Made by a program: the position numbers and the translations under genes
DNA from: an archaeon
Lineage (GTDB): Archaea > Nanobdellota > Nanobdellia > Woesearchaeales > GW2011-AR15
Reading direction: 5' to 3'
DNA: 64,000 nt
Assembly (NCBI GenBank): GCA_018657065.1
Contig: JABHXU010000011.1
Span: forward strand, 22,948 to 86,947
Notes under the pieces: generated by a model
Database searches by the model: none
Seen by the model: only the letters and a program-made list of their open reading frames with translations
Told to the model about the DNA's origin: nothing
Shown: positions 11,625 to 30,313 of the stretch, piece after piece
How the letters are laid out: each line of letters begins with the position of its first letter
How positions within the stretch are numbered: the first letter of the stretch is position 1

Positions 11625-13919
11625 TTGAATATTATAAATTTTTGTATGGATATAGAATTTTCAGTTGAACGGATAGGTGAAGACACAACTCTTAAATGTG
11701 ATTTCTCTAATTCATCCCATGTTCCGTCTATTGAAGATAGTGAATTTACCATGGCTAAAGTCATTGAAAGACTTGCAAAAAGCCACGGAGTAACAAAATT
11801 AGTCTTCTACCAAAAAAGAGAGTATGAATATGATTATCAACAAACTCTCTTAGTAAGTGAAATTGCATCAATATATAGAGATTTATCTAAAGAAGATAAA
11901 ATTTCTCTAGCAAATTTAAGTGCAGGAAGATGTAGTATTTATGCTGAATCTTGGTATAATAAATTAAAAAATATTATCTCTAATCTTTTATTAAAAGATC
12001 CTCTTGGCGCATATGTAGAATTAAAGAGACTTAGAAGACGACAAAAAATATTATTTGAAAAAAGTAACGATGAAAATGAAACTTTTTGCATATCACATTT
12101 TGTTTCTATTATTGATTATTTAGTCCAATTATTAGAAAACACTAAATTAATTATTATTTCTAAACCCTATTTGGCAGGCTATGAATTAGGAAACAGAATC
12201 ATATATCGTAGAATTTTCAACCCTACAATTAAACCAGATTTCATGTACACAAAACTTATGAGTGCTTATCCTAAAGATGGGGAAGAAATTGACAGTTATA
12301 CTGTTGGTGAAGACACTGAAATAACTGTTTTTAGATTAAATGAAAATGTGAAAACTCTCTATCATATAATGCCTCCTGAGTTCAAGTTATCTGAAGAAAA
12401 ATATGAATTATTAGATACTGCTAGAAATATAATGGCAGAACATAAACCTGCAAAAGCAGATTTTGTTGATCCTCAAAGAATGCGAGAAGTATTTTTTAAT
12501 GTTGGAAAAGATTTAATTGAAGAATTATCCTCATATAGAAAAGTAAGAATTAAAGAAAAAGAAATTCTTGAATTAACAAAAATTCTCGTCAGATATACTG
12601 TAGGTTTTGGATTAATTGAAGTCTTACTTCAAGATGAAGAAATTCAAGATATTTCTATTAATAGTCCTATGGGTAGAATTCAAATTTTTATTGTTCATGG
12701 TAAATATGATGATTGTGTAACAAATATTATTCCTACACCTCAAGAAGCTGAGTCTTGGGCATCTAAACTCAGAATGATTTCTGGAAGGCCATTAGACGAA
12801 GCTAATCCAATTTTAGATACAGAATTAGAACTCCCAGGTGTTTCTACTAGGGTTTCTGTAATTAATAAACCACTAAATCCTACAGGACTCGCTTTCTCAT
12901 TTAGAAGACATAGAGACAAACCTTGGACTCTTCCTTTATTTATGAATTATAAGATGATTAATCCACTTGCAGCCGGTCTCTTAAGTTTTTTAATTGATGG
13001 AACAAGAACATTTATGATTTGTGGAACAAGAAGTAGTGGAAAGTCCTCATTTTTATCTTCTGTAATTGTTGAAATTATGAGAAGATATAGAATAATTACT
13101 ATCGAAGATACTCTTGAATTGCCTGTTCCTCAACTTAGAAAATTAGGTTTTAATATTCAATCAATGAAAGTTGCTTCTTCACTTACTCAAACAGGTAGTG
13201 AGGTTGATGCTACAATTGGAATTAGAGCTACATTAAGGTTAGGAGATTCATCTTTAATCGTTGGTGAAGTAAGAAGTACTGAAGCTGTAGCTCTTTACGA
13301 AGCTATGAGGGTTGGAGCTGCTGCAAATGTAGTTGCAGGAACAATTCACGCAGATTCACCATATGGACTATATGATAGAGTTGTAAATGATATTGGTGTT
13401 CCTAAAACTAGTTTTAAAGCTACAGACATTATTGTTATTGCTTCCCCAATAAAATCTGCAGACGGGTTACACAAATATAGAAGAGTAACAAAAATTACTG
13501 AAGTTCAAAAACACTGGGAAGAAGATCCTTTACTTGAACACGGATTTATGGATTTAATGAAATATGATGCTCAAAAAGATGAACTTGTTCCTACTGCAGA
13601 TTTAATTAATGGTGAATCTGAAGTTCTAAAAACAATTGCAGGAAATATTTCAGATTATGCTGGAAATTGGGATGCTGTCTGGCAAGATATTTTAGTTCGT
13701 GCCAAATATAGAGAAACACTTGTTGAAGAAGCTGTTAAAAGAAATGATTTTGACATGTTAGAAGCACCATTTGTTATATTATGTAATGATATGTTTCACA
13801 TATTTAATGAGAAAGTTAAAAAAAGAACCGGTAAACTAGATCATAAATTAATTTATCAAGAGTGGGAAAACTGGTTTAAACAAGAATTAACAAAAAGAAA
13901 AATAAGAAAATCTGGTTAA
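11625..13919 (+). CDS. Type II/IV secretion-family ATPase (archaeal PilB/FlaI(ArlI)-like, T2SSE family) with a long N-terminal extension
   Basis: FSFRRH, Walker A GTRSSGKSS, Walker B/Asp box SSLIVGEVRSTEA and His box AGTIHADSP. The listed start is TTG; an ATG lies at 11646. Confidence 0.88.
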   Translation: MNIINFCMDIEFSVERIGEDTTLKCDFSNSSHVPSIEDSEFTMAKVIERLAKSHGVTKLVFYQKREYEYDYQQTLLVSEIASIYRDLSKEDKISLANLSAGRCSIYAESWYNKLKNIISNLLLKDPLGAYVELKRLRRRQKILFEKSNDENETFCISHFVSIIDYLVQLLENTKLIIISKPYLAGYELGNRIIYRRIFNPTIKPDFMYTKLMSAYPKDGEEIDSYTVGEDTEITVFRLNENVKTLYHIMPPEFKLSEEKYELLDTARNIMAEHKPAKADFVDPQRMREVFFNVGKDLIEELSSYRKVRIKEKEILELTKILVRYTVGFGLIEVLLQDEEIQDISINSPMGRIQIFIVHGKYDDCVTNIIPTPQEAESWASKLRMISGRPLDEANPILDTELELPGVSTRVSVINKPLNPTGLAFSFRRHRDKPWTLPLFMNYKMINPLAAGLLSFLIDGTRTFMICGTRSSGKSSFLSSVIVEIMRRYRIITIEDTLELPVPQLRKLGFNIQSMKVASSLTQTGSEVDATIGIRATLRLGDSSLIVGEVRSTEAVALYEAMRVGAAANVVAGTIHADSPYGLYDRVVNDIGVPKTSFKATDIIVIASPIKSADGLHKYRRVTKITEVQKHWEEDPLLEHGFMDLMKYDAQKDELVPTADLINGESEVLKTIAGNISDYAGNWDAVWQDILVRAKYRETLVEEAVKRNDFDMLEAPFVILCNDMFHIFNEKVKKRTGKLDHKLIYQEWENWFKQELTKRKIRKSG

Positions 13920-16900: not shown

Positions 16901-18415
16901 TCCTGCAGGAAGCAATTTAATTGATCCTGAATGATCTACACCTGAAAAACTATCAAGTTCTTCTTTTACTGCTTTTCCTACTTCTACATAATATTTTGCA
17001 TATTCAATTATTTCATAATTTGTTAAAGAAATATTATGCCATTCAACTGCTAAATTTGGTTCATCTCCTATTTCTATATATATAGGCCATTGAGGTTTAT
17101 CTTTATGAATTTTATCAAGTAAACTTAAAATGTACCAAACAGGTGTTTCATCTGTTGATGAATCTCCATAATCATAAGACGGTAGTGCTCCACCATCTTC
17201 ATTTTCACCATAATAACAATCTAATGAATAGGAATCACATGATGAATCTTCTCCAATATATTCTTCATGTTTACAAAATGATTTTGCATTATTACAGATA
17301 CCTGGATGTGTCCAATACTCTGTAACTCTATTTTCTTTAGGAGGTAATACTTCTCTTAAATTAATTATTGGAGTCAATTCCATATCATATAATTTATCAA
17401 AAATTTCTTTGTAAAAATCTAATTCATTATCGGTAAATGCTTCATTATGAACAACTACTTTAACAAATCCACATGCACCTGAAAAATTATATGCACAATT
17501 AAGATTTTTATCAACTCTACCGACAACACCAGTTTCAACAAGTTCATCCCACATAACTTGCATACCATATTTATTAGCCCCATGACAAGTTGCTCCCCAT
17601 TCAGACAGATGAGTTGTTGCTGCAATAACTTTATTTTTTTCAACATCTGCAGAGCTAGGTAATGTTTCCCAGTGATCATTATCTAAAAATACTATTTTAA
17701 ATGCTTGCTCTTTTGCTAAATGTGAAACATGTTCATCTTCATATCTAATAGTTAAAAATGCATTTGGACTAAATGTAACGTGTGGACTAAATTCATACTT
17801 TACTCTTCCTAGAATTGCTGGATCATCTGGACACATTTCTTTTAAGTATAAACTTATCTTATTTCCACCTTCAACAGTTGTGCCTTTAGGAATTTTAAGT
17901 TCCAAATCTAAATCTGATGAAATTAAAGATTGTTCTCTTTGAAGAACTCCATCACTCAAATCTAAAGACAATGTTTTAGTTCTTGGCAATTTGAAAGTTC
18001 TATCAAAAAATTCAATTCTAGTGTCTTTTTTCAAGATAATTGGATAGTAAACATAGGCATAAATCTCATCATCTCTTATCTCAACTTCAACTTCGTCTGG
18101 CTTATCTTCTGCTGTAACAATATATTTTTGTTCTTCAAAATTAGAAAAATTCATACACCCATATATTTCAGACTCTATGTTTTGTTTAAATGGTTTTGAA
18201 TCACATATACCTTCTTCATCTATTGTTCGTAGAACAATTGAATAAATACAATCATCCATTGATTTTTCTAGATAATCAGATGAAAACTCGAGTAAAGGAG
18301 GTTTATTATTGACTATATTATCTATAGGATTTTGACTTATATAAATAAGACTTCCTACTAGTGCTACTAATACCAAACCGAGAATAACATATACAGTAAT
18401 TTGAGATTTTGCCAT
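13925..18415 (-). CDS. Giant (1496 aa) cysteine-rich surface protein: pilin-like N-terminus, ZU5-like module, GH clan-A-like motifs interrupted by thrombospondin type-3 repeats, duplicated Cys-knot C-terminus
   Basis: Uninterrupted 4.5-kb ORF. N-terminus MAKSQITVYVILGLVLVALVG; the ZU5-like module ends in THLSEW. GH-A-like motifs are VVHNEAF, IEIGDEPNL, ADHTYP and ILITEMAW. Residues ~788-975 hold D.D.DG..D..DNCP...NP.Q.D repeats. The C-terminus has two copies of a ~75-aa Cys-rich module. Confidence 0.85.
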   Translation of the reverse strand: MAKSQITVYVILGLVLVALVGSLIYISQNPIDNIVNNKPPLLEFSSDYLEKSMDDCIYSIVLRTIDEEGICDSKPFKQNIESEIYGCMNFSNFEEQKYIVTAEDKPDEVEVEIRDDEIYAYVYYPIILKKDTRIEFFDRTFKLPRTKTLSLDLSDGVLQREQSLISSDLDLELKIPKGTTVEGGNKISLYLKEMCPDDPAILGRVKYEFSPHVTFSPNAFLTIRYEDEHVSHLAKEQAFKIVFLDNDHWETLPSSADVEKNKVIAATTHLSEWGATCHGANKYGMQVMWDELVETGVVGRVDKNLNCAYNFSGACGFVKVVVHNEAFTDNELDFYKEIFDKLYDMELTPIINLREVLPPKENRVTEYWTHPGICNNAKSFCKHEEYIGEDSSCDSYSLDCYYGENEDGGALPSYDYGDSSTDETPVWYILSLLDKIHKDKPQWPIYIEIGDEPNLAVEWHNISLTNYEIIEYAKYYVEVGKAVKEELDSFSGVDHSGSIKLLPAGLAPTLGMKECRLTPASSKEYHDEAFTYKIEDWGDGFFMKKSCDALYEMYNYLVDDNNYCTAEELPEVPDHGDYGLCFDGSALNDKGKDYCPGCCDSTCTVQDDKICGPTPGTHDITDKEEAYLDCLRVEKPFFMEMKSWLSFYLGFDYRYVFEDIDIDHLLELDPSTYCNVDSIPDKNKASDNSKAFTVAKNIRTRILDTFNTYCFEKITEVHPDEFIETIYSYNNNEICNYLDLYADHTYPDPDDMTYPGGDDPFGAQAYEARFAKVSSYCTDLQDLKCTAPDVTDADADGVIDYEDNCPNDANPLQEDWDAWTGDGKGDVCDDSDGDGIMDSEDLCPGSNQVVTDETDTDEDGMPDVCDNCVNIANYDQRDRDHNDIGDDCEDIDGDSVSDFPASKICKQSELGTGDCIVDNCPSIVNPNQNDEDQDDVGDACDNCVNYPNPLQRDDDSDGEGYPCDEDDFDLCPNIAGIQRNPEECPAQDLCEGKILITEMAWAPHPYEVYKELPSFNVDDYVDDVTRAYEKWTNDQRVLAIIPFHVGEGYSELSDYSWSKEMCSNNCVGTDLFNQVSKNENPIDSCSGSSGGGGFSSGICTDSRILFQNLGKQVGKGNFVATYQTCEGAELGSTKTTFSNAGTNYIYKGLSEGFDVKDLETDFECVESDGTIDEGAACLEEEIDGENYYGLLVCAPDPWFMKCGTVEECGGDSANCCSRGGEYGNFWAACISGCNNSSDCSDGSSCIDGKCVSDDMCISEGQDEKTPDLGDDDPNKDKECCEGLDTLLPTDIFDDSCEQTETENITYICSSCGNNVCEDWESECNCPEDCSSPCDPACTDDLICTEGNCVECVDNGDCSSDKICIENVCSDPECDATNPCTEPLVCEVGRCVEEPCDDTTNPCTDPQICELGECVDPPAPTECIEVGNDEKSPYLGTEDPNIDKECCEDLTAIKPAETYDVDCNDAGLTEWTYVCSNCGDSVCDSYETECTCPNDCP
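15491..16054 (-). repeat. Thrombospondin type-3-like Ca-binding repeat array (coding, within the 1496-aa protein)
   Basis: DADADGVIDYEDNCPNDANPLQED, DSDGDGIMDSEDLCP, DTDEDGMPDVCDNCVNIANYDQRDRD, DNCPSIVNPNQNDEDQDDVGDACDNCVNYPNPLQRDDDSDG. Confidence 0.75.
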
Positions 18416-20479: not shown

Positions 20480-23400
20480 TTAATTTAAAAGTATAGTTGT
20501 GCTATCAACAAAATCTGAATCTAAAGTTAAAAAATCTGCTGACGCTCTTCTTTCAACACCACCATCATTAATTGTAACAAAGAGTACACCATAATTAAAA
20601 GCATTATTAATTGTAGTTGTACAATCTTTTACAACCTCTGTTTCATCTCTTAAATAATAGTTTTCAGTGAAAATTGTTGACCACCAAGTATCTGTATCAT
20701 GAAGTGCACAATCATACATATCATTACCTACACCACCTAAACCAGACATAAATATCATTGTTTTTCCTGGTTCAAGTAATTCAGTAACAATTGGTGTTAT
20801 TGGATTTAAGCTGCTTAACATTTTTGTTCTAGCATATGCTTTATCATATCCTGTAACAATTAATGCTCCTGCTTCTCTACATAAATCATAATAACTAACT
20901 CCTAAATTGTCTACCTCTTCTTTGTTACTAATTCTTAGATCTTTATTTGCTTTATTCCAGATACAAAATTTCCAATCATGGTCTGTTTGCAATGAATCAT
21001 TAATAAAATCATCATGGTCTTGTGTTCCATATGTTGTTCCTACACCAGAAACCACAAATGAAATTCCTTTAAATTCACAAGTCATTTGATCTCCTGTTTC
21101 ACCTGTACAAACTAAATCATCATCAAAACTACTTTCAATGTCTGATTTATAATCTTCCCACTCAGCCACATCATAAATTCCAATTGAAGAAATAAACGGA
21201 ATTTCTAAATAACTCATCATGTCGGACCAATCATCATATGAATCAAATCCTAAGTTTCCATTTAATACAATTAAATCTGGACTTTCATCCATTAATAATT
21301 GAACAACATCTTCACTTGTTTGATTATATCCTTGATTACCTAAGAAAGCAATTACAATTTCTTCAGGTAATACTGATTCGTAATTACAATCATTATTATT
21401 GAATTTTTCATCAGCTTCACATAATGCTTCACCATATGCATTGATATGAGGATATTCAACTCTATTTGTTTCATTATATGGATAAAAGATCATACCATGA
21501 TAATCTTGAGATAAGATATCCTTAGCTGTTAAATTAATCCAATCTGCATCCTTTCCAGTTATATCAACCATTGGAATAATTTTTACAGTTGTATTAATGT
21601 CAAGTAATTCATCTCCTCCATAATAATCAAATAAAACAATATCTGTGAATGTTTCATTTTCTGCAAGTTTTTGAGCAGCACATTCTTTTGTCATGTATGT
21701 AATTAACGGAATTTCTGTTAGTTCATGATATTCATCATATAGTGCTGTTAAATTAGTGTCTTCACTACAATCTAAATCAAGTAACCAGTAACCAATAATT
21801 TCACTCAAATCAACAATTGTTTCTGTTAAATTTGTATCTTGATCATAGTCTAGTTTAATAAACCAATCATAATCACTAGTTGTAACTATTGTATTATCTT
21901 CTGCATAGTATCCTAGTGCTGGTGCATCAAATTCAACAGTCATATCTGGAGTTACTCCATAGAATCCTACAATAGGTTTAACATCATATGTTGGTTCTAA
22001 TTCTTCGCAGACATTATCTTCATTACACATATATCCTTCTTCACAATCTTCGTCTGTTTCACAGGTCTCAATTTCCTCACAAAGATCATCTTCATTACAT
22101 ATATAACCTTCTTCACAGTCTTCATCTGTTTCACAAGATTCATTAACACCTAAAAGATCTTTGATTTTTTCATATGGAATAAAAATATCAGGTTTAAATC
22201 CATCTGTTTGTGTTTGACTTTCCACAAATACCCAACATCTTCCTGATAGCATTTGAGCGTCATCCATAATAAGAACTTCTGTTCCACCAGGTAAATCTCC
22301 AAATGAATCACAATATTTCTTATCTCTTGTATCAAGGGTTTCTTTTGTTGTAACTCTTTGCCCTACAAATTCACTTACATCAAATTCTGTACATGCTCCA
22401 CTTGATTCACTACACGGAGCACCCCTACCTCCTCCACCTTCACCTGCTGCACATACTCCTTCTTTACATGTTTGACCTTCTGGACAAGTACTATCATCTG
22501 TGCAAGTAACAGTGCCTCCTCCGCCACCACCATTTCCTAAAGGATCTTCAGGATCAAAATCATCTAAACATAGTCCTTCATTTGTTGGATCAACTCCACC
22601 AATCATTCCGGTTATTCCCACTACTTTTCCTGATAAAAGTCCTTTTCCTTGTCTACATGGACAATCATCACCTGAAGAAATTTGAAATGTTCCGTCTACA
22701 CAATGTAAACAATCTTCCTTACCAAAACTTACATAACAACCTTCAATTGCACATTTTCCACCCTCAGTTTTATCAAAACAAGCAGCAGGATCTGAGACTG
22801 GATCATCTCCTTCTTTTTCAGCTGGTTTAGTTGCAAGACTATATACTGGATGTGTTAACCCTTCTTTTTCACCACATAAAAAACATTCTCCACCCATATA
22901 TAATGGATCTTCTAAATTTTCACAATTATATTCCATTTTAACACTTCCTACACCAGCAAGTGCTACTTCTGCTCCACCATTAATACACACTTCTTCTGTT
23001 GATTCTTCTGAATTAACAACATATAAATTAAAATCTAATGTTGGACTATTTGCTTCACCTGGTTTTAATTGTCCTTTTGGAATCATACAATTATCTGCTT
23101 CACAAATAGGTGTAATTAAAATTGCTGGACCATCATCATCTGAAATTATTTCACATGTTTCACCTAGTGCAGAAGTTAAACATTCAATATTAGTAAATGT
23201 TTTTTCAGAAGTTTTTCCTCCATCAGGATCATAAATACATGAATCTCCACTATCCTGAAATAAAATTTCAACATTAAAAATTGCATTTGGTTTATTTAGT
23301 AATGTTCCTGGTAATGACCCATCATTTTCCTTAAATCCAAAATATATTGCTTCACAAGTAATTTTTTCAGCAACAGAATCATCAAGGCAATACCTAGCAC

Positions 23401-24697
23401 TTTCTAAAGGACATTCCTCTTTGCAAAGAGTCATAATTTCATCAAAGTTACCTGGGTCTGGTGTTGGTAATGCACTTGGATCTTCAGGATCATAATCATA
23501 TTTTTTTATACAATCTTTATAATATGCTCCAGCATATTTTTCTGTTAAATCAAGATTACCAAGATCTGAAGGAAGTATATATGCACTCATTGGTTCAGGA
23601 TCATCTGCTTTTCCTATTACTTCACTTAAACTCTTAGCTTTTTTATATATTGACCAGACTACACTTGGCCCATTACCAAAACCCTCACATTCAAATCCAT
23701 CAGGAATTTCTACATTTGGTCCTCCACTTGTTTTTGCAGGCATCCATTCAGTTTTTTCCATAGTCCAGCCTTCGCATCCAATAACATGAGGATAAATAAC
23801 ATTATCTAGTGTAATTGTTCCGCCAGTTCCTTTTCCACATTCAGTAACAGTAGCAAAAGGTGTAAAATGTTTAATCTCTGCAGTTAATTTTCTTTTTTCA
23901 AGATCAACTTCAGTAGGTATACCTATCCAAACATCTAGTAAATCATCATAGTAACCTATATTAACATCATCTCCTTGATGAAATAAACCTAAATCTTCTT
24001 CTCTAAAATACTTAATAATTTTAACAGGTTGACTAAAAACAGTATTATGAGGAATTCCATTAAAAGCAAGCATTCCTGCTACAACAGAATTACTTAATGC
24101 ATTAAATTCTCTATCAAGTTGTTTGATTCCAATTTTATCAACTGGTTGACCATTAACTGTTGCTGTTGTTCCAGGTGGAACTTCCAAAATCATAGAACCA
24201 TCAGCACTGACAACTCTAGTTGTTTTAGATGGGTCAAGAGTTTCCATTACAGTTCTAGGTAATCTATATGTTTGTCCTTCAAATCTAAGAAGGGTATCTT
24301 TTTTCTTAAATTCCATGGGATATTCAATTACAGCTACTAATGCTTCTTGTTCGATAACAACTTCAATATTTAGCACTCCATATTTTGCTTTATAACTTCG
24401 TTCTTTAGCAAAAGAATCAATACAAGGTTGTAAATTTTGTCTTATATGTTCCTCAATATAATAAGGAGAATAATCTCTTCTAAGCCCATACTTAAGCTCA
24501 GCATCAATTATATTTTGTTTTACACATTCGTAAATCAAAGACTGAAGTGAACTTTGTTTAGGTCCCATTTCAAAAACGTATTCTGAATCTGAAAGAATTG
24601 AATCTTGTGTTGTTTGTCTAATAATAAAAAAACTACCAAGAATTATTACAACTAATATTCCAATAATAACATATAAACTAACTTGTGCTTTCCTCAT
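20480..24697 (-). CDS. Giant (1405 aa) cysteine-rich surface protein: pilin-like N-terminus, ZU5-like module (HFT), Cys-rich mosaics, degenerate purple-acid-phosphatase-like C-terminal domain
   Basis: N-terminus MRKAQVSLYVIIGILVVIILG. ZU5-like segment LEVPPGTTATV...FSQPVKI...IGYYDD..DVW...KHFTPFATV. A Gly run and tandem CETDEDCEEGY.CNED..CEE units are present. The C-terminal motifs are FLGNQG, LNGNLGF, CIWNKAN and VTGYDKAYAR. Confidence 0.85.
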   Translation of the reverse strand: MRKAQVSLYVIIGILVVIILGSFFIIRQTTQDSILSDSEYVFEMGPKQSSLQSLIYECVKQNIIDAELKYGLRRDYSPYYIEEHIRQNLQPCIDSFAKERSYKAKYGVLNIEVVIEQEALVAVIEYPMEFKKKDTLLRFEGQTYRLPRTVMETLDPSKTTRVVSADGSMILEVPPGTTATVNGQPVDKIGIKQLDREFNALSNSVVAGMLAFNGIPHNTVFSQPVKIIKYFREEDLGLFHQGDDVNIGYYDDLLDVWIGIPTEVDLEKRKLTAEIKHFTPFATVTECGKGTGGTITLDNVIYPHVIGCEGWTMEKTEWMPAKTSGGPNVEIPDGFECEGFGNGPSVVWSIYKKAKSLSEVIGKADDPEPMSAYILPSDLGNLDLTEKYAGAYYKDCIKKYDYDPEDPSALPTPDPGNFDEIMTLCKEECPLESARYCLDDSVAEKITCEAIYFGFKENDGSLPGTLLNKPNAIFNVEILFQDSGDSCIYDPDGGKTSEKTFTNIECLTSALGETCEIISDDDGPAILITPICEADNCMIPKGQLKPGEANSPTLDFNLYVVNSEESTEEVCINGGAEVALAGVGSVKMEYNCENLEDPLYMGGECFLCGEKEGLTHPVYSLATKPAEKEGDDPVSDPAACFDKTEGGKCAIEGCYVSFGKEDCLHCVDGTFQISSGDDCPCRQGKGLLSGKVVGITGMIGGVDPTNEGLCLDDFDPEDPLGNGGGGGGTVTCTDDSTCPEGQTCKEGVCAAGEGGGGRGAPCSESSGACTEFDVSEFVGQRVTTKETLDTRDKKYCDSFGDLPGGTEVLIMDDAQMLSGRCWVFVESQTQTDGFKPDIFIPYEKIKDLLGVNESCETDEDCEEGYICNEDDLCEEIETCETDEDCEEGYMCNEDNVCEELEPTYDVKPIVGFYGVTPDMTVEFDAPALGYYAEDNTIVTTSDYDWFIKLDYDQDTNLTETIVDLSEIIGYWLLDLDCSEDTNLTALYDEYHELTEIPLITYMTKECAAQKLAENETFTDIVLFDYYGGDELLDINTTVKIIPMVDITGKDADWINLTAKDILSQDYHGMIFYPYNETNRVEYPHINAYGEALCEADEKFNNNDCNYESVLPEEIVIAFLGNQGYNQTSEDVVQLLMDESPDLIVLNGNLGFDSYDDWSDMMSYLEIPFISSIGIYDVAEWEDYKSDIESSFDDDLVCTGETGDQMTCEFKGISFVVSGVGTTYGTQDHDDFINDSLQTDHDWKFCIWNKANKDLRISNKEEVDNLGVSYYDLCREAGALIVTGYDKAYARTKMLSSLNPITPIVTELLEPGKTMIFMSGLGGVGNDMYDCALHDTDTWWSTIFTENYYLRDETEVVKDCTTTINNAFNYGVLFVTINDGGVERRASADFLTLDSDFVDSTTILLN
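21995..22138 (-). repeat. Two tandem 72-nt (24-codon) coding repeats
   Basis: SCETDEDCEEGYICNEDDLCEEIE / TCETDEDCEEGYMCNEDNVCEELE. At the DNA level cattac recurs at 22021 and 22093, giving a 72-nt period. Confidence 0.8.
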
Positions 24698-24831
24698 TAA
24701 ATACCCACCTAGAAACTACATCAGTATATGACCTATATAAATTTAATGAAAATCTAAAAAAAGATTTTCAAAAGTTTAGAAATATAACTCTTCAAAACTT
24801 ATTATAAAAATAAAAAATTAAGAAAAAAAAA

Positions 24832-27800
24832 CTATTTTGTTATTTCAAAAGTATCAATTATTTCATTGTTAATTGTAATGAATTCTCCTTTTGCAATATT
24901 AGGATCATCATCATAATTAAAAGTTATAAATAACGCTCCAGGTACAAAACTCGGAACTACATCATTTTCACAATGTTTTAAATTGGAATCTTTTGTAATG
25001 AATGCGTTTGATGTGTAAATAGCATCCCACCAATTATCTGTATCATGAAGTGTACAATCATATTGAGTTGCACCATGTCCACCTAAACCAGATATTAATG
25101 ACACTGTTCCTTTACTTAGATCTAAGTTATCTTGCGTAGTTATTGGATCTAATGTTGCAAGAAGTTTTGTTCTTGTATAAGCTTCATCATATCCACTTAC
25201 AATAATGGCTCCTGCATTTTTACATAAATCATAATATTTCATTCCTAGATCATCATTATCATCTTTTGCACTAATTCTTAGATCTTTGTTTGATTTATGC
25301 CAATTACAAATAACCCATTCATTTCCTTCTTGCAATGAATCAGTAATAAATGCTTCATGTCCTTGTGTCATGAAATCAGTTCCAACACCTGAAAGAATAA
25401 AAGAAACACTATCATAAACACATGTTTGTTTATTTCCATAAATTCCTTTACATTCTAATTCATTTGTCCATGGTTCAAGAACTACTGAATAATCTCCCCA
25501 ACTTTCATTTAGAAATTCTTCTTGTCCTATAACTGCAACAAATGAAATATCTTCTGAAAGATTATTTTTTAACATTTGTTCAAATTCTACAGGTCTTGCT
25601 TTGTAACCTAAATTACCTAGGTGTACTACAACGTCAGCATCTTCTTCTGTAATTAATTCTAACACTTTTTGAGCATATGCTTCTGTTCCTGAATTACCTA
25701 TAAATGCAACTCTAATTTCATCAACATCAATTGGTTCAAATTCACATTCTTCGCCTAAATAATATTGTTCAGCTTCACAAAAGAATTCTAAAAATGTATT
25801 TTTATAATCAATCTTATTAATTACTTTATCAAGTTCATCATAAGGATAAAAAATAACTCCATGATATTTTTTATTTAATGTTTCCATTGCTAGATCTTTA
25901 ATTTCATCAGGTTCCATTACTTTTGAACCAGATTCCATTACATTAACCATTGGAATAAATTTGATATAATGACTTGTCATTTTTAAGATATCTTTTACTT
26001 GATCAACATCATTATCTGGACTATCTGATTCAAATAACACAACATCTACAAATTGTTCATCTGTGTCATCAAAAAATTCTTCAGCACATCCGAGTGTTCT
26101 AAAGTTAATCATCACTGGAATTTCTTCATTTGATATAACAAACATATTGTATAATTCAACTAAATCTTTAGCACTTATATCCCATTTATCTTCATTACAA
26201 GGATCATCTAAAATTAAATATCCTTTAACTGAACTATCATCATAAATAATATCATCAAATTGAATGTCATCAAAATCAATTTCTTCATGCCTTTCAAATT
26301 TAGTATCATCTAACGCTATAAATAATTCAAGTCCTTCATCATCCAAATTTAAGTCTTCTGAATTATCTTCGTCATAATAACCTGCGGTTACTGCACCTAG
26401 ATCATCTACTTGTCTAAATTGTTCTTCTAGAACAGGATAAAAACCAAGCATGACTGAAATTTCTCTAGGGTCTTCTCCTGTAAATTCTGTAACACATTTT
26501 CCTTCTTGACATAAACAATTTCCTTGTCCACAGTCTAAAGTATCTGGAACACATTCTTGTGTGCAATCGACTGCTGAACAATCTGGCGCAGCGTCAACAT
26601 GTGTGCATGAATCTGCATGACAACAAGTTGCAGGAACACAATCCTCATCACTTGTACATTCTGGAATTTCTATACAAATCCCTTCTTCACCACAATAATA
26701 ATCTTCTTCACAATCATCACTTGATTCACATGTTTGTGATAAATCTATAAACTCTTCAATGTCACTAAACATTGCATAAAATTCAGGTTCATCTCCATCA
26801 TAAATTTCTAATGCTCTTAAAAAAAACCAACAAATTTCTTCTCTATAAGCTGAATCTAAAATTTCAAGTTCAACATCATAACTAAATTCAAATGCATCTG
26901 GATATTTTCCTTTTTCTTCACTTGCCCCAAAACTATCTCTAAATTGTCTATCTCTAATAATAAATGATTCTCCTTCAAGAACTTTAAAAATTGCCCCCAT
27001 ATAATTATCAAAGTCATCAGGACATTGATCATATTCTTTAGGTTCATCATCTCCATCTGGAACACATGCACCATCCTTACATTTTTCATCTGCTGCGCAA
27101 TCTTCGTTAGTTGTACATCCAATTGGTTCAGGTTCTCCTGGTAAAGGAGTTTCAATTGGTGGAATAGGTTCAACTGGTGTTAATGGTGATAATGGTGCAA
27201 TTGGAAATCCTCCTGTATTAGGAAATTGAGGTGTTGTATCAATCGCAGAGCCATCTGAAGTCAATGTTGCTTCCCATAAACATTGTGTTTCAAAAGAATC
27301 ATAAGGTCCACTTGAGCCTGTTGTACCTCCACTTCCATCTGAAGGCACACATTTCTTCTCTTTTAATTCACATCCTGGTGCACTATCACAACCATCTAAA
27401 TTATCAAACTCTTTTGTAAATTGATTACAATCTTCTTCAACTGCTACTTCGGGTTCTTCTCCTGATTCATCTGGATCTATTTTGGCTATCCTATCACAGT
27501 ATGCAAATCCTGAATCTCCTTTGCAAACAGTCCCGATAGGACAGATTTTACATTGTCCATCTGGATTTGTTTTACCATTTTTTTTATCACATATTTTTCC
27601 ATTTGAACTTTTACATACTGAATCAGTATAAAGCAGAGTTTCACAATATGCAAATTTATATTCTCCTAAACATTTACACACATTGTCTTGTGAGGTATCA
27701 ATGTGCTCAATATTAGTTGATGCCGCACACTCAGACCAAGTCATTTCCTTACCAGGGTCAAATTTATCTACTTCAGCATTTACTGATACCAAAAAAATAG

Positions 27801-27846
27801 TGAAAATTAAAACAAAAATATAGCTCTTAAGTGTTCTCGATTTCAT
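24832..27846 (-). CDS. Giant (1004 aa) secreted cysteine-rich protein with Sec-type signal peptide and degenerate purple-acid-phosphatase-like C-terminal domain
   Basis: Signal peptide IFVLIFTIFLVSVNAEV, Cys-rich N-terminal half and a Pro-rich linker. The C-terminal ~540 aa are collinear with the 1405-aa protein (YHGVIFYPY, AFIGNSG, HLGNLGY, VIGQEEF, CNWHKSNKDLRIS, VSGYDEAYTR). Confidence 0.85.
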   Translation of the reverse strand: MKSRTLKSYIFVLIFTIFLVSVNAEVDKFDPGKEMTWSECAASTNIEHIDTSQDNVCKCLGEYKFAYCETLLYTDSVCKSSNGKICDKKNGKTNPDGQCKICPIGTVCKGDSGFAYCDRIAKIDPDESGEEPEVAVEEDCNQFTKEFDNLDGCDSAPGCELKEKKCVPSDGSGGTTGSSGPYDSFETQCLWEATLTSDGSAIDTTPQFPNTGGFPIAPLSPLTPVEPIPPIETPLPGEPEPIGCTTNEDCAADEKCKDGACVPDGDDEPKEYDQCPDDFDNYMGAIFKVLEGESFIIRDRQFRDSFGASEEKGKYPDAFEFSYDVELEILDSAYREEICWFFLRALEIYDGDEPEFYAMFSDIEEFIDLSQTCESSDDCEEDYYCGEEGICIEIPECTSDEDCVPATCCHADSCTHVDAAPDCSAVDCTQECVPDTLDCGQGNCLCQEGKCVTEFTGEDPREISVMLGFYPVLEEQFRQVDDLGAVTAGYYDEDNSEDLNLDDEGLELFIALDDTKFERHEEIDFDDIQFDDIIYDDSSVKGYLILDDPCNEDKWDISAKDLVELYNMFVISNEEIPVMINFRTLGCAEEFFDDTDEQFVDVVLFESDSPDNDVDQVKDILKMTSHYIKFIPMVNVMESGSKVMEPDEIKDLAMETLNKKYHGVIFYPYDELDKVINKIDYKNTFLEFFCEAEQYYLGEECEFEPIDVDEIRVAFIGNSGTEAYAQKVLELITEEDADVVVHLGNLGYKARPVEFEQMLKNNLSEDISFVAVIGQEEFLNESWGDYSVVLEPWTNELECKGIYGNKQTCVYDSVSFILSGVGTDFMTQGHEAFITDSLQEGNEWVICNWHKSNKDLRISAKDDNDDLGMKYYDLCKNAGAIIVSGYDEAYTRTKLLATLDPITTQDNLDLSKGTVSLISGLGGHGATQYDCTLHDTDNWWDAIYTSNAFITKDSNLKHCENDVVPSFVPGALFITFNYDDDPNIAKGEFITINNEIIDTFEITK

Positions 27847-27847
27847 T

Positions 27848-30313
27848 TTATGGCACCTCCTCAGTTGTAGGTGGATTTAAATTATCAGTCACCGCTGTAG
27901 GAAATCCATTATTTTCTGTTGTTGCAGGTAATGTTGCTTTAGATAAACAATCACAATTATCTGCATCAATTATTTCAACTTCACCATATAACGGGTTGCT
28001 TCCAGGTTTACAAAATACACAATTAGGTTCATTTGTAGGATTTGGATAAGTTTTACCTATAACTGATGCTGCACAAATTTGATTATTATAATTTAAACAA
28101 GTTGTTGAATCTGTTGTAGGTCTCCAAATATATTTAACTATTTCTTCTTTTGCCGCATCTGGTGCATTAGCTGCATCATCTTTACAACTACTTCCTGCTT
28201 TATTACAAATTTGTCTTAAACAGCTACTACAAAAACCTTTTACATAATCGATTTTTCCAACTAATTCTGCATTACAAAGCAAACTATGATCTGCTTTAAC
28301 TCCTGTCCCCATAAAATTTATCTCTGCACTTCCCTGAATACATGCATCAGGATCAGATCCATTATTTTCTACTTCTAAAAAGAAATATATACGAGGATTT
28401 CCTGCACCTGTTTCATCAAAATACGCGCTTCTAATAGCACAATCATCTTCACTTAAACATTTTGGAACAATTTCTACATTAAAAGTATCTTTATAATTTC
28501 CATCTGTTTGATTTAAACGTTTAACAGGAACTATTTGAGGAAACCTATCTCCTTTTTCTACTGAACTTGATTCTGTAGAAGGAATTTGAGAAGTCCAATC
28601 ACTATAACTTAAAGATGTACCTGTTGGTGGTTGCTGTGAATTTGTTCCCTGACTAGCTACACAAGCATTTCCATTTTTTTCAAATTCTATTTGATAATAA
28701 CCTCTTCCCATAAGCCCAACTTCTGGTTCCGAAGGATCTGGTCGTTTCCAAGTTCCATCTATATTTTTATTTGTCTTTGCATATTTATATGCTTTTAAAC
28801 TTCCTAAATAACAAAATGAAACTTCTCTACTATCTTTCTCTGCAAAAGCATAACATGTTCCTTCACAAACTGATTCACAATCACTTGTTTTTGCAAATAT
28901 TTTTTTGTTATCTGGAGTTATTAAATCTTTAATTTTAAGATATGTAACTATATTTTCAACATAAGTACAGTCAGTCACAGTAGAGTCATCAACGATTGAT
29001 CCATCTGGACACTCAATAGTGCCTTCATCAACTTCACTTAAACTATATCCTTCATCAAAAATTGTTAAATCATCTAAGGTTAATTCTCTTTCAACAACTT
29101 CGCAAGTTAATATATGCTGCTTTATTATTTTTTCATTCCACAATGTTTTAGCAGCTTCATCATCTTCATCCCATTTCACATCTGAACCATCAACATCTAT
29201 TAATTTTTCAATTTCATTGTCTGTACTTTCTTTAAAAACAAGCTCTATCATTTCATTTCTTTTAGCTGCATACTCAACAAAATCAATATCATCTTTAATA
29301 TCATCTTCATTTTTATATAATTCACCTAGACCTTCTGCGGTTCCTTCATTCCAACCTTCACAACCACCACCAACTTTGTTATCACAAATTTGTTTAACAA
29401 TTGTAGGTGTTGCTACACTTGTTATAGGTTCATCTTTTCCACCACAATTAATAGTTATTCCGTAAACAGAAAAGTGATTTGTATATGCAGTCATTTTATT
29501 TACTTCTGAATCAACAACTGTAGGAAGACCAACCCAAATTCCAATTGTATCATGGTAATAACCAATCTTCAAATTTTCTTCATTAATAAAAGGTGGAACA
29601 TCTATATCATCATAATATGCTATAACTTTTACCGGTTTAGAAAATGAGACTCCATGAGGTGCAGCGTAAAACGCTCTTCTTCCTAGAAGTACAGAATTAG
29701 ATAGGCCATTAAAGTGTTTATCAAGATTTTTTAAAGTTATTTCCTCAACTTCTTCATCACCTACATATGCCTTTGTTCCAGGTTCAATTTCAATCACAAA
29801 TCCTCCATCAGTTGAAGTAATTAGAGTTGTTTTGTCTGGATTAATATCTTCAGTCACAGATCTAGGTAAAGTATAAGTTGTATCATCATGATTAAGTTTT
29901 AATGTTCCTCTTGACATTCTAACTTCATAGTTTAATTCAACAATAAGTGCGTTATTTGTAAGAATAGCGTTAGCCTTTGGGTCTTTAGATGTCACGTCAA
30001 AATTTTGTTCTTCAAATGCATTAAAATTATCTAAACATTCTGGCATAGAATACTCAACATATGCAGCAATAGGTGCTATTGAAGCTTTTTTATCTAAACC
30101 AAACCGTTTTTCCGCTTCAATAGTAGATATCTCAATACAATGTTCTACATATGCATCAAGAAAATCTTGATCAAGTTTTGCGTCTCCAGATCTTATACGC
30201 TCAATATCAAATTCTGTTTTTGAATTATCCATCCTAAGAAGGATTAGTGTTCCAACAATAATAACTATAATCAACCCAATTATTACAAATAGACTTACTT
30301 GTGACTTTTTCAT
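27848..30313 (-). CDS. Giant (821 aa) cysteine-rich surface protein: pilin-like N-terminus, ZU5-like module (HFS), Cys-rich C-terminal region
   Basis: N-terminus MKKSQVSLFVIIGLIIVIIVG. The first ~330 aa are collinear with the 1405-aa protein (YTLPRS..., IEIEPGTKAYV, FSKPVKVIAYY, IGYYHD.IGIW, NHFSVYGI, GCEGWNEG). Confidence 0.85.
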   Translation of the reverse strand: MKKSQVSLFVIIGLIIVIIVGTLILLRMDNSKTEFDIERIRSGDAKLDQDFLDAYVEHCIEISTIEAEKRFGLDKKASIAPIAAYVEYSMPECLDNFNAFEEQNFDVTSKDPKANAILTNNALIVELNYEVRMSRGTLKLNHDDTTYTLPRSVTEDINPDKTTLITSTDGGFVIEIEPGTKAYVGDEEVEEITLKNLDKHFNGLSNSVLLGRRAFYAAPHGVSFSKPVKVIAYYDDIDVPPFINEENLKIGYYHDTIGIWVGLPTVVDSEVNKMTAYTNHFSVYGITINCGGKDEPITSVATPTIVKQICDNKVGGGCEGWNEGTAEGLGELYKNEDDIKDDIDFVEYAAKRNEMIELVFKESTDNEIEKLIDVDGSDVKWDEDDEAAKTLWNEKIIKQHILTCEVVERELTLDDLTIFDEGYSLSEVDEGTIECPDGSIVDDSTVTDCTYVENIVTYLKIKDLITPDNKKIFAKTSDCESVCEGTCYAFAEKDSREVSFCYLGSLKAYKYAKTNKNIDGTWKRPDPSEPEVGLMGRGYYQIEFEKNGNACVASQGTNSQQPPTGTSLSYSDWTSQIPSTESSSVEKGDRFPQIVPVKRLNQTDGNYKDTFNVEIVPKCLSEDDCAIRSAYFDETGAGNPRIYFFLEVENNGSDPDACIQGSAEINFMGTGVKADHSLLCNAELVGKIDYVKGFCSSCLRQICNKAGSSCKDDAANAPDAAKEEIVKYIWRPTTDSTTCLNYNNQICAASVIGKTYPNPTNEPNCVFCKPGSNPLYGEVEIIDADNCDCLSKATLPATTENNGFPTAVTDNLNPPTTEEVP

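Follow-up and report, generated by a model that had tools for sequence, protein, structure and literature searches.

What becomes of a phosphatase domain that has lost the residues holding its metals? The question is raised by two adjacent, intact open reading frames on the minus strand of a 64-kb stretch of the archaeal contig JABHXU010000011.1 (hereafter the window, meaning the whole stretch that was analyzed), which encode giant proteins of 1405 aa (P0001, positions 20480..24697) and 1004 aa (P0002, positions 24832..27846). A first-pass annotation had proposed that both proteins end in domains resembling purple acid phosphatases (PAPs), which keep the fold and the order of the five metallophosphoesterase motifs, have most ligands replaced, and are probable pseudo-enzymes. 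Our analysis makes it likely that both giants end in ~295 residues derived from a PAP-like metallophosphoesterase, secreted and disulfide-bonded, that have lost catalysis and now serve as an extracellular, non-catalytic recognition module. The degenerate domain occupies residues 708-1004 of the 1004-aa protein (24835..25725, minus strand) and residues 1113-1405 of the 1405-aa protein (20483..21361, minus strand).

The two proteins can be aligned over their last ~770 residues (BLASTP E 2e-102), and their C-terminal ~300 residues are paralogous and, as claimed earlier, collinear, with 40% identity. All of the motif strings that had been quoted were found in place: AFIGNSG (N718), HLGNLGY (N745, Y748), VIGQEEF (Q775, E776, E777), CNWHKS (H850) and SGYDEAYTR (Y886, D887, E888) in the 1004-aa protein, and AFLGNQG (N1121), LNGNLGF (N1148, F1151), SIGIYDV (I1174, Y1175, D1176), CIWNKAN (N1248) and TGYDKAYAR (Y1284, D1285, K1286) in the 1405-aa protein.

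The degenerate domains belong by descent to the calcineurin-like metallophosphoesterase superfamily. Neither reaches the gathering score of Pfam Metallophos (PF00149) directly (16.4 bits, E 0.012, for the 1004-aa protein against a cut-off of 21.5; no match for the 1405-aa protein), and single-sequence phmmer searches of each C-terminal piece against PDB sequences returned chance matches only. Residues 696-1004 of the 1004-aa protein match three intact proteins of ~570 aa (P0007-P0009) at 30% identity (E 8.5e-38 to 6e-25); the same query also retrieved an identical copy of itself and three close relatives that show the same deviant motifs. The intact proteins read FIGDQG, HNGDFDY, VGNHDA, CNWHKNQHD and TGHEHSY at the five motifs and exceed the PF00149 gathering score (25-30 bits vs 21.5; P0007 scores 30.2 bits). 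They are part of a large family, of which an exhaustive profile search recovered 1110 representatives at E <= 1e-3 (319 of them at E <= 1e-30) and a word-indexed search 938 at E <= 1e-5. With this uncharacterized secreted subfamily of Metallophos the window domains share 28-36% identity, full-length collinearity and a set of landmarks (four Cys, W, G, Y.RT, SGLGG and DTWW). The subfamily differs in having all nine motif residues, a length of mostly 300-560 aa and other N-terminal parts (CBM96/DNRLRE), whereas in the window clade the ligands are lost and the domain stands at the end of ~1000-1570-aa proteins.

The extent of ligand loss can be read column by column. In PAPs the metals are bound by seven residues: the Asp of GDxG, the Asp and Tyr of GDxxY, the Asn of GNH[DE], the His of motif IV and both His of GHxH. 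We aligned 247 full-length family domains to one hidden Markov model and followed nine motif columns, namely these seven ligands together with the His and Asp/Glu of motif III. The columns read DDYNH[DE]HHH in 227 of the 247 domains; in exact register, they read NNYQEEHYE in the 1004-aa protein and NNFIYDNYK in the 1405-aa protein, and the consensus of the window clade is NN[YFT]xx[DE][HNS]Yx. The 1004-aa protein thereby retains two of the seven PAP ligands (Y748 and H850), and the 1405-aa protein none. Asn replaces both ligand Asp in all clade members, and Tyr (in one case Phe) replaces the first His of GHxH. The GDxxY Tyr is retained in most members, with F in the 1405-aa protein and T in one other. 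The remaining columns have diversified, with Q, I, S, K, A, N, L, D or E at the Asn of GNH[DE], H, N or S at the motif IV His, and E, K, Q, M, N or R at the second His of GHxH. The general-acid/transition-state His of GNH[DE] is replaced by E776 in the 1004-aa protein and by Y1175 in the 1405-aa protein, and is lost clade-wide in a column that varies. Next to the motifs, the clade has likewise changed residues that intact family members conserve at 86-98% (N->S, M->L, Q->R, G->S, W->L, E->D, S->A, R->D). The alternative that the ligands survive in another register, which the annotation had named as a way for its reading to fail, was ruled out: since the alignments to intact homologues have no gaps around any of the five motifs, hundreds of intact relatives leave no alternative register for them.

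The scaffold around the vanished site has survived. Four family-wide Cys, Gly and Trp positions, Y.RT, SGLGG and WW are kept throughout the clade, which is further enriched in a third Cys pair; the domain of the 1004-aa protein has six Cys, at positions 799, 809, 847, 875, 931 and 959. We modeled residues 456-1004 of this protein with AlphaFold (AF2) from an 84-sequence alignment, after a shallow alignment of the two paralogues had given a predicted local distance difference test score (pLDDT) of 31.6 and was dropped. The model has a mean pLDDT of 83.5 and a predicted template modeling score (pTM) of 0.79, with pLDDT 90-98 in the C-terminal domain, which is predicted to adopt the alpha-beta-beta-alpha sandwich fold. 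Its best Foldseek match in the PDB is a wheat purple acid phytase (E 1.9e-11), followed by pig and human PAPs with template modeling (TM) scores of 0.64-0.65 normalized to the target (pig 0.65), and then, in order, by Plasmodium GAP50 (E 1.3e-9), PhoD, acid sphingomyelinase and GpdQ; the top matches extend down to E 1.7e-7, and those to PAPs, PhoD, acid sphingomyelinase, GpdQ and others have a probability of 1.00. The family profile independently matches PAPs among PDB sequences (6gja, E 1.3e-4; 1xzw, 1.9e-3; 3zk4, 4e-3) with GDxG, GDxxY, GNH[DE], WH and GHxHxY.R all in register, while a smaller profile of eight sequences gave a marginal PAP match (E 0.077). The structural and the in-register profile matches together make the family PAP-like, and the fold match that had been called for is thus in hand. 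Compared with PAPs and phytases themselves (wheat PAPhy 6git/6gj9, pig 7ov2, human ACP5 2bq8, sweet potato 1xzw; Foldseek E 1.9e-11 to 2.9e-10), the window domains share the fold and the five motifs in the same order, and the intact relatives also have the GDxxY Tyr and GHxHxY.R. The window domains differ from PAPs in their ligands (D->N, D->N, N->variable, H->H/N/S, H->Y, H->variable, with the Tyr mostly retained), in sequence, at just 11-16% identity, and in carrying a beta/alpha module where PAPs have an FN3-like N-terminal domain.

This upstream module, whose sharing between the giants had been noticed before (GFY / YY.ED / W.LD / YHG.IFYPY), is real. It spans residues 462-707 of the 1004-aa protein (25726..26463, minus strand; GFYPV ... 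YHGVIFYPY) and residues 905-1112 of the 1405-aa protein (21362..21985, minus strand; GFYGV ... YHGMIFYPY), and its ~200-240 residues are about 30% identical between the giants (tblastn E 1e-14 to 1e-16). AF2 predicts alternating strands and helices in five to six beta-alpha units with pLDDT 76-88, and weak Foldseek matches of the two-domain model to TIM barrels (E 1e-4 to 5e-3) probably come from this module. For this module, neither Pfam scans of nine members nor a profile run against PDB sequences returned a significant match. The module directly precedes the degenerate domain in all full-length clade members and is absent from every intact relative, and the two form a cassette of ~550 residues.

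All degenerate sequences form one clade in a maximum-likelihood tree (support 0.999 with 10 members, 0.998 with 12), on a long stem (0.48) and with a root-to-tip distance of 2.04 vs 1.14 for the remaining family. This clade branches from within a subgroup of intact sequences that has the third Cys pair and includes a protein of an uncultured archaeon (L005) and bacterial proteins; the metal site was therefore lost once. Related uncultured archaea are the source of all 12 members, each of which is part of a giant surface protein; the full-length ones are about 1000-1570 aa long, mostly with prepilin-like N-termini or signal peptides (one record of 844 aa is cut at its N-terminus). An extracellular setting for the domain is indicated by these predicted N-termini together with the Cys pairs. 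The clade is rare in public data: a contig scan found the degenerate form in one other species only (L003), and a further protein search added just two close orthologues.

Within this small clade few parts of the giants are as well conserved as the domain, which is under purifying selection. Compared with the orthologue P0006, it is 55-72% identical vs 12-25% for the variable middle of the same protein, and Nei-Gojobori estimates of nonsynonymous and synonymous divergence (dN/dS) are 0.29/1.05 (~0.28) for the domain and 0.90/0.98 (~0.9) for the middle, values that are approximate because dS is near saturation. Nine aligned members share 46 invariant columns, among them a further Cys pair. Those at or near the former active-site columns include N26, N53, G55, R165, S167, Y194, D195 and K202 (N718, N745, G747, R857, S859, Y886, D887 and K894 in the 1004-aa protein), and the newly acquired invariant residues at former ligand positions are Asn, Asn, Tyr and Asp. 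Exact word matches to the gene occur in at least 20 metagenome runs of marine or seawater samples, drawn from many studies, which confirms the marine origin of the archaeon, and a metatranscriptome comparison, which covered the 1405-aa gene, found mismatch-free pieces of it, domain included, in four marine runs, whose contigs may include DNA carry-over. It is a real gene that is probably transcribed in situ. In one metatranscriptome contig (run X23, depth 2) a single base is missing at window position 21391, which is probably an error since the site is not a homopolymer.

The sequence features expected of a pseudo-enzyme are thus found together: catalytic residues are lost, selection is purifying and the domain is conserved across lineages. 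The ligands have gone and the domain has been conserved, which argues for a maintained pseudo-enzyme rather than for decay, and the earlier proposal of a pseudo-enzyme with a retained fold is borne out by the monophyly of the clade, the purifying selection and the new invariant residues at the old ligand positions. Most likely, the domain no longer hydrolyzes anything. We propose that, in an ancestor of these marine, probably DPANN-type, archaea, an intact enzyme of the family was fused once to a giant surface protein, at its far end and behind the beta/alpha module. After fusion the binuclear metal centre would have been lost, with both carboxylates that neutralize the dimetal centre gone and the sandwich, disulfides and core retained, and the former active-site cleft would have been re-lined with the invariant polar residues N718, N745, Y886, D887, R857, S859 and K894 (1004-aa numbering). 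The pilin-like or secreted giants would present the domain at their distal end, where the old substrate cleft could hold on to a ligand carried by another cell or surface. From the ancestry of the domain and the Asn/Tyr/Asp/Arg lining of the cleft, this ligand is most plausibly a phosphorylated or carbohydrate group; a lining of Asn, Asn, Tyr, Tyr, Asp, Arg, Ser and Lys is typical of sugar- or phosphate-binding sites.

Several points weigh against a non-catalytic recognition module. That the new invariant residues cluster in the old cleft is deduced from the alignment, the dN/dS values are approximate, and the transcript evidence could partly reflect carried-over DNA. Moreover, Asn, Tyr, His, Asp and Glu are still capable of binding metal, and the 1004-aa subtype has Y748 and H850 as well as the acidic residues E776, E777, D887 and E888, so it may contain a mononuclear or Ca-type metal site.

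It is unlikely, in our judgment, that the domain has no ligand of its own and acts as a structural cap or protein-protein interface through which adjacent giants pair or dock on a filament, much as Vps29 or the polymerase B subunits employ this fold as a scaffold. Such a role would fit the presence of two adjacent cassette-bearing genes in three genomes and the constant association of upstream module and domain, modeled together at the pTM given above. The known inactive members of the metallophosphoesterase fold are scaffolds, among them Vps29 of the retromer, and this also counts in its favor. The conserved changes, however, are centred on the former active-site columns and are not scattered over a surface. 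Beyond Vps29, the B subunits of the alpha, delta and epsilon DNA polymerases of eukaryotes contain a non-catalytic calcineurin-like domain (PMC2528186), and in Plasmodium the PAP-fold protein GAP50 (3tgh) serves the glideosome as a membrane anchor, although acid phosphatase activity has been reported for it as well (PMC8949495). In these proteins, as probably in the window domains, the fold has been kept and put to use in binding or scaffolding, either in place of hydrolysis or alongside it, and GAP50 is among the best structural matches of the window domain. Unlike the window domains, they are eukaryotic, are intracellular or located in the inner membrane complex, and arose independently, and none of them is an extracellular part of a giant archaeal surface protein. 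Inactive metallophosphoesterase-fold domains are already known; new here is an independent prokaryotic and extracellular instance, with its own conserved remodeling and a new partner module.

We consider it very unlikely that the domain is still an enzyme, with a remodeled site that binds one metal or none and carries out a different or slower hydrolysis, for instance of a phosphoester or glycan on a host surface. The invariance of N26, N53, Y194, D195, R165, S167 and K202 across the clade is what a functional pocket predicts, and the 1004-aa subtype retains the Tyr and one His and has additional carboxylates. Set against this, both carboxylate ligands are gone, as are three or four of the five others; close relatives differ freely in the ligand columns that remain, which is unlike a catalytic site; and the general-acid His of GNH[DE] is absent from every member. 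We also know of no metallophosphoesterase chemistry that proceeds without a two-metal centre. That the domain is a functionless remnant heading for loss is scarcely credible: the faster evolution of the clade and the variability of several ligand columns would suit decay, but 12 diverged sequences retain full-length, gap-poor domains with the 46 invariant columns noted above, the sequence is identical across many marine samples, and the contrast in dN/dS between the domain and the variable neighboring region of the same gene contradicts it.

Returning to the recognition module, a more specific role can be put forward tentatively, as a possibility to which we attach modest weight. In marine DPANN-type archaea the cassette might form the head with which giant pilin-like adhesins recognize a host, its re-lined cleft gripping, on the envelope of that host, a phosphorylated glycan or lipid head-group, with adjacent paralogues, one pilin-anchored and one secreted, working as a pair. 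If so, a phosphatase-derived lectin would be a determinant of host choice by an episymbiont. How DPANN-type archaea and other ultrasmall episymbionts recognize and hold their hosts is largely unknown, and their giant surface proteins are mostly unannotated; a cassette of this size with named candidate contact residues offers a handle for binding and structural studies. The clade also represents a clean natural case of a probable conversion from enzyme to binding module in the metallophosphoesterase superfamily, for which intact sister proteins are available as controls.

The intact family deserves attention in its own right. Its members (P0007-P0009, P0160-P0176 and about 1000 more representatives) are secreted, four-cysteine, PAP-like proteins that keep all ligands, and they occur in myxobacteria, in candidate-phyla bacteria (Candidatus Gottesmanbacteria) and in archaea. 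In Sorangium they are frequently fused to CBM96/DNRLRE domains, and further members come from metagenome-assembled genomes labeled Candidatus Gottesmanbacteria, Nanoarchaeota and Anaerolineae. The few that have names, from Sorangium, Nannocystis, Enhygromyxa, Anaerolineae and Nanoarchaeota, are called 'metallophosphoesterase' or 'DNRLRE domain-containing protein'. Curated resources say only 'Metallophos' of this family of more than 1000 representatives: we found no NCBIfam model for either the degenerate domain or its intact relatives, no specific Pfam family for the intact proteins, and no curated family or paper that describes the degenerate domain.

The genomic setting of the two giants is that of a cluster of surface-protein genes. 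From N- to C-terminus, the 1405-aa protein consists of a prepilin-like N-terminus (MRKAQVSLYVIIGILVVIILG), a head of ~310 aa, a variable middle, Cys-rich repeats and the cassette; the 1004-aa protein begins with a hydrophobic, Sec-signal-like stretch (MKSRTLKSYIFVLIFTIFLVSVNA), which is followed by Cys-rich modules and the cassette. Both belong to a run of co-directional giant genes in the window encoding 821, 1004, 1405 and 1496 aa, and a tblastn search of the window found no cassette copies beyond these two. Between the 1405-aa and 1496-aa giants lie genes for a metallo-beta-lactamase (MBL)/LOG fusion and a membrane-bound winged helix-turn-helix regulator, and a type II/IV secretion (T2SSE-type) ATPase gene (11625-13919) adjoins the cluster. 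The head of the 1405-aa protein (its first ~310 residues) is shared with the 821-aa (E 9e-49) and 1496-aa (E 4e-23) proteins; together with the prepilin-like N-terminus it is encoded at window positions 23768-24697, 29351-30313 and 17519-18415 in the 1405-, 821- and 1496-aa proteins, respectively.

The order RNase J - giant - giant - giant - MBL/LOG recurs in the related contig L001. Adjacent gene pairs in which both products end in the cassette are found in three genomes, encoding 1004 and 1405 aa in the window (20480-27846), 1142 and 1261 aa in L001 (6499-13786), and 1573 and 1379 aa in L003 (2110-10945). The window and L001 pairs each combine a protein that has a Sec-type signal with one that has a prepilin-like head; in the L003 pair both are prepilin-like, and in the tree neither has a closer relative than the other. 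Certain orthologues of the 1004-aa type extend beyond the degenerate domain: in P0004 (residues ~1015-1109) and in the 1142-aa protein of L001 (last ~95 residues) it is followed by an acidic linker and a Cys-rich tail, CSDCGN.VCD..E..C.C..DC, which is missing from the 1004-aa copy of the window. Upstream of the Cys-rich repeats lies a further clade-wide module, TLDTRDKKYCDSFGD ... CWVFVE ... GFKPD.. ..Y..IKDLLG, encoded at window positions 22200-22600 (residues ~700-830 of the 1405-aa protein) and 26760-27130 (residues ~240-360 of the 1004-aa protein), and flanked by DUF7107-like CxxDxDC mini-repeats.

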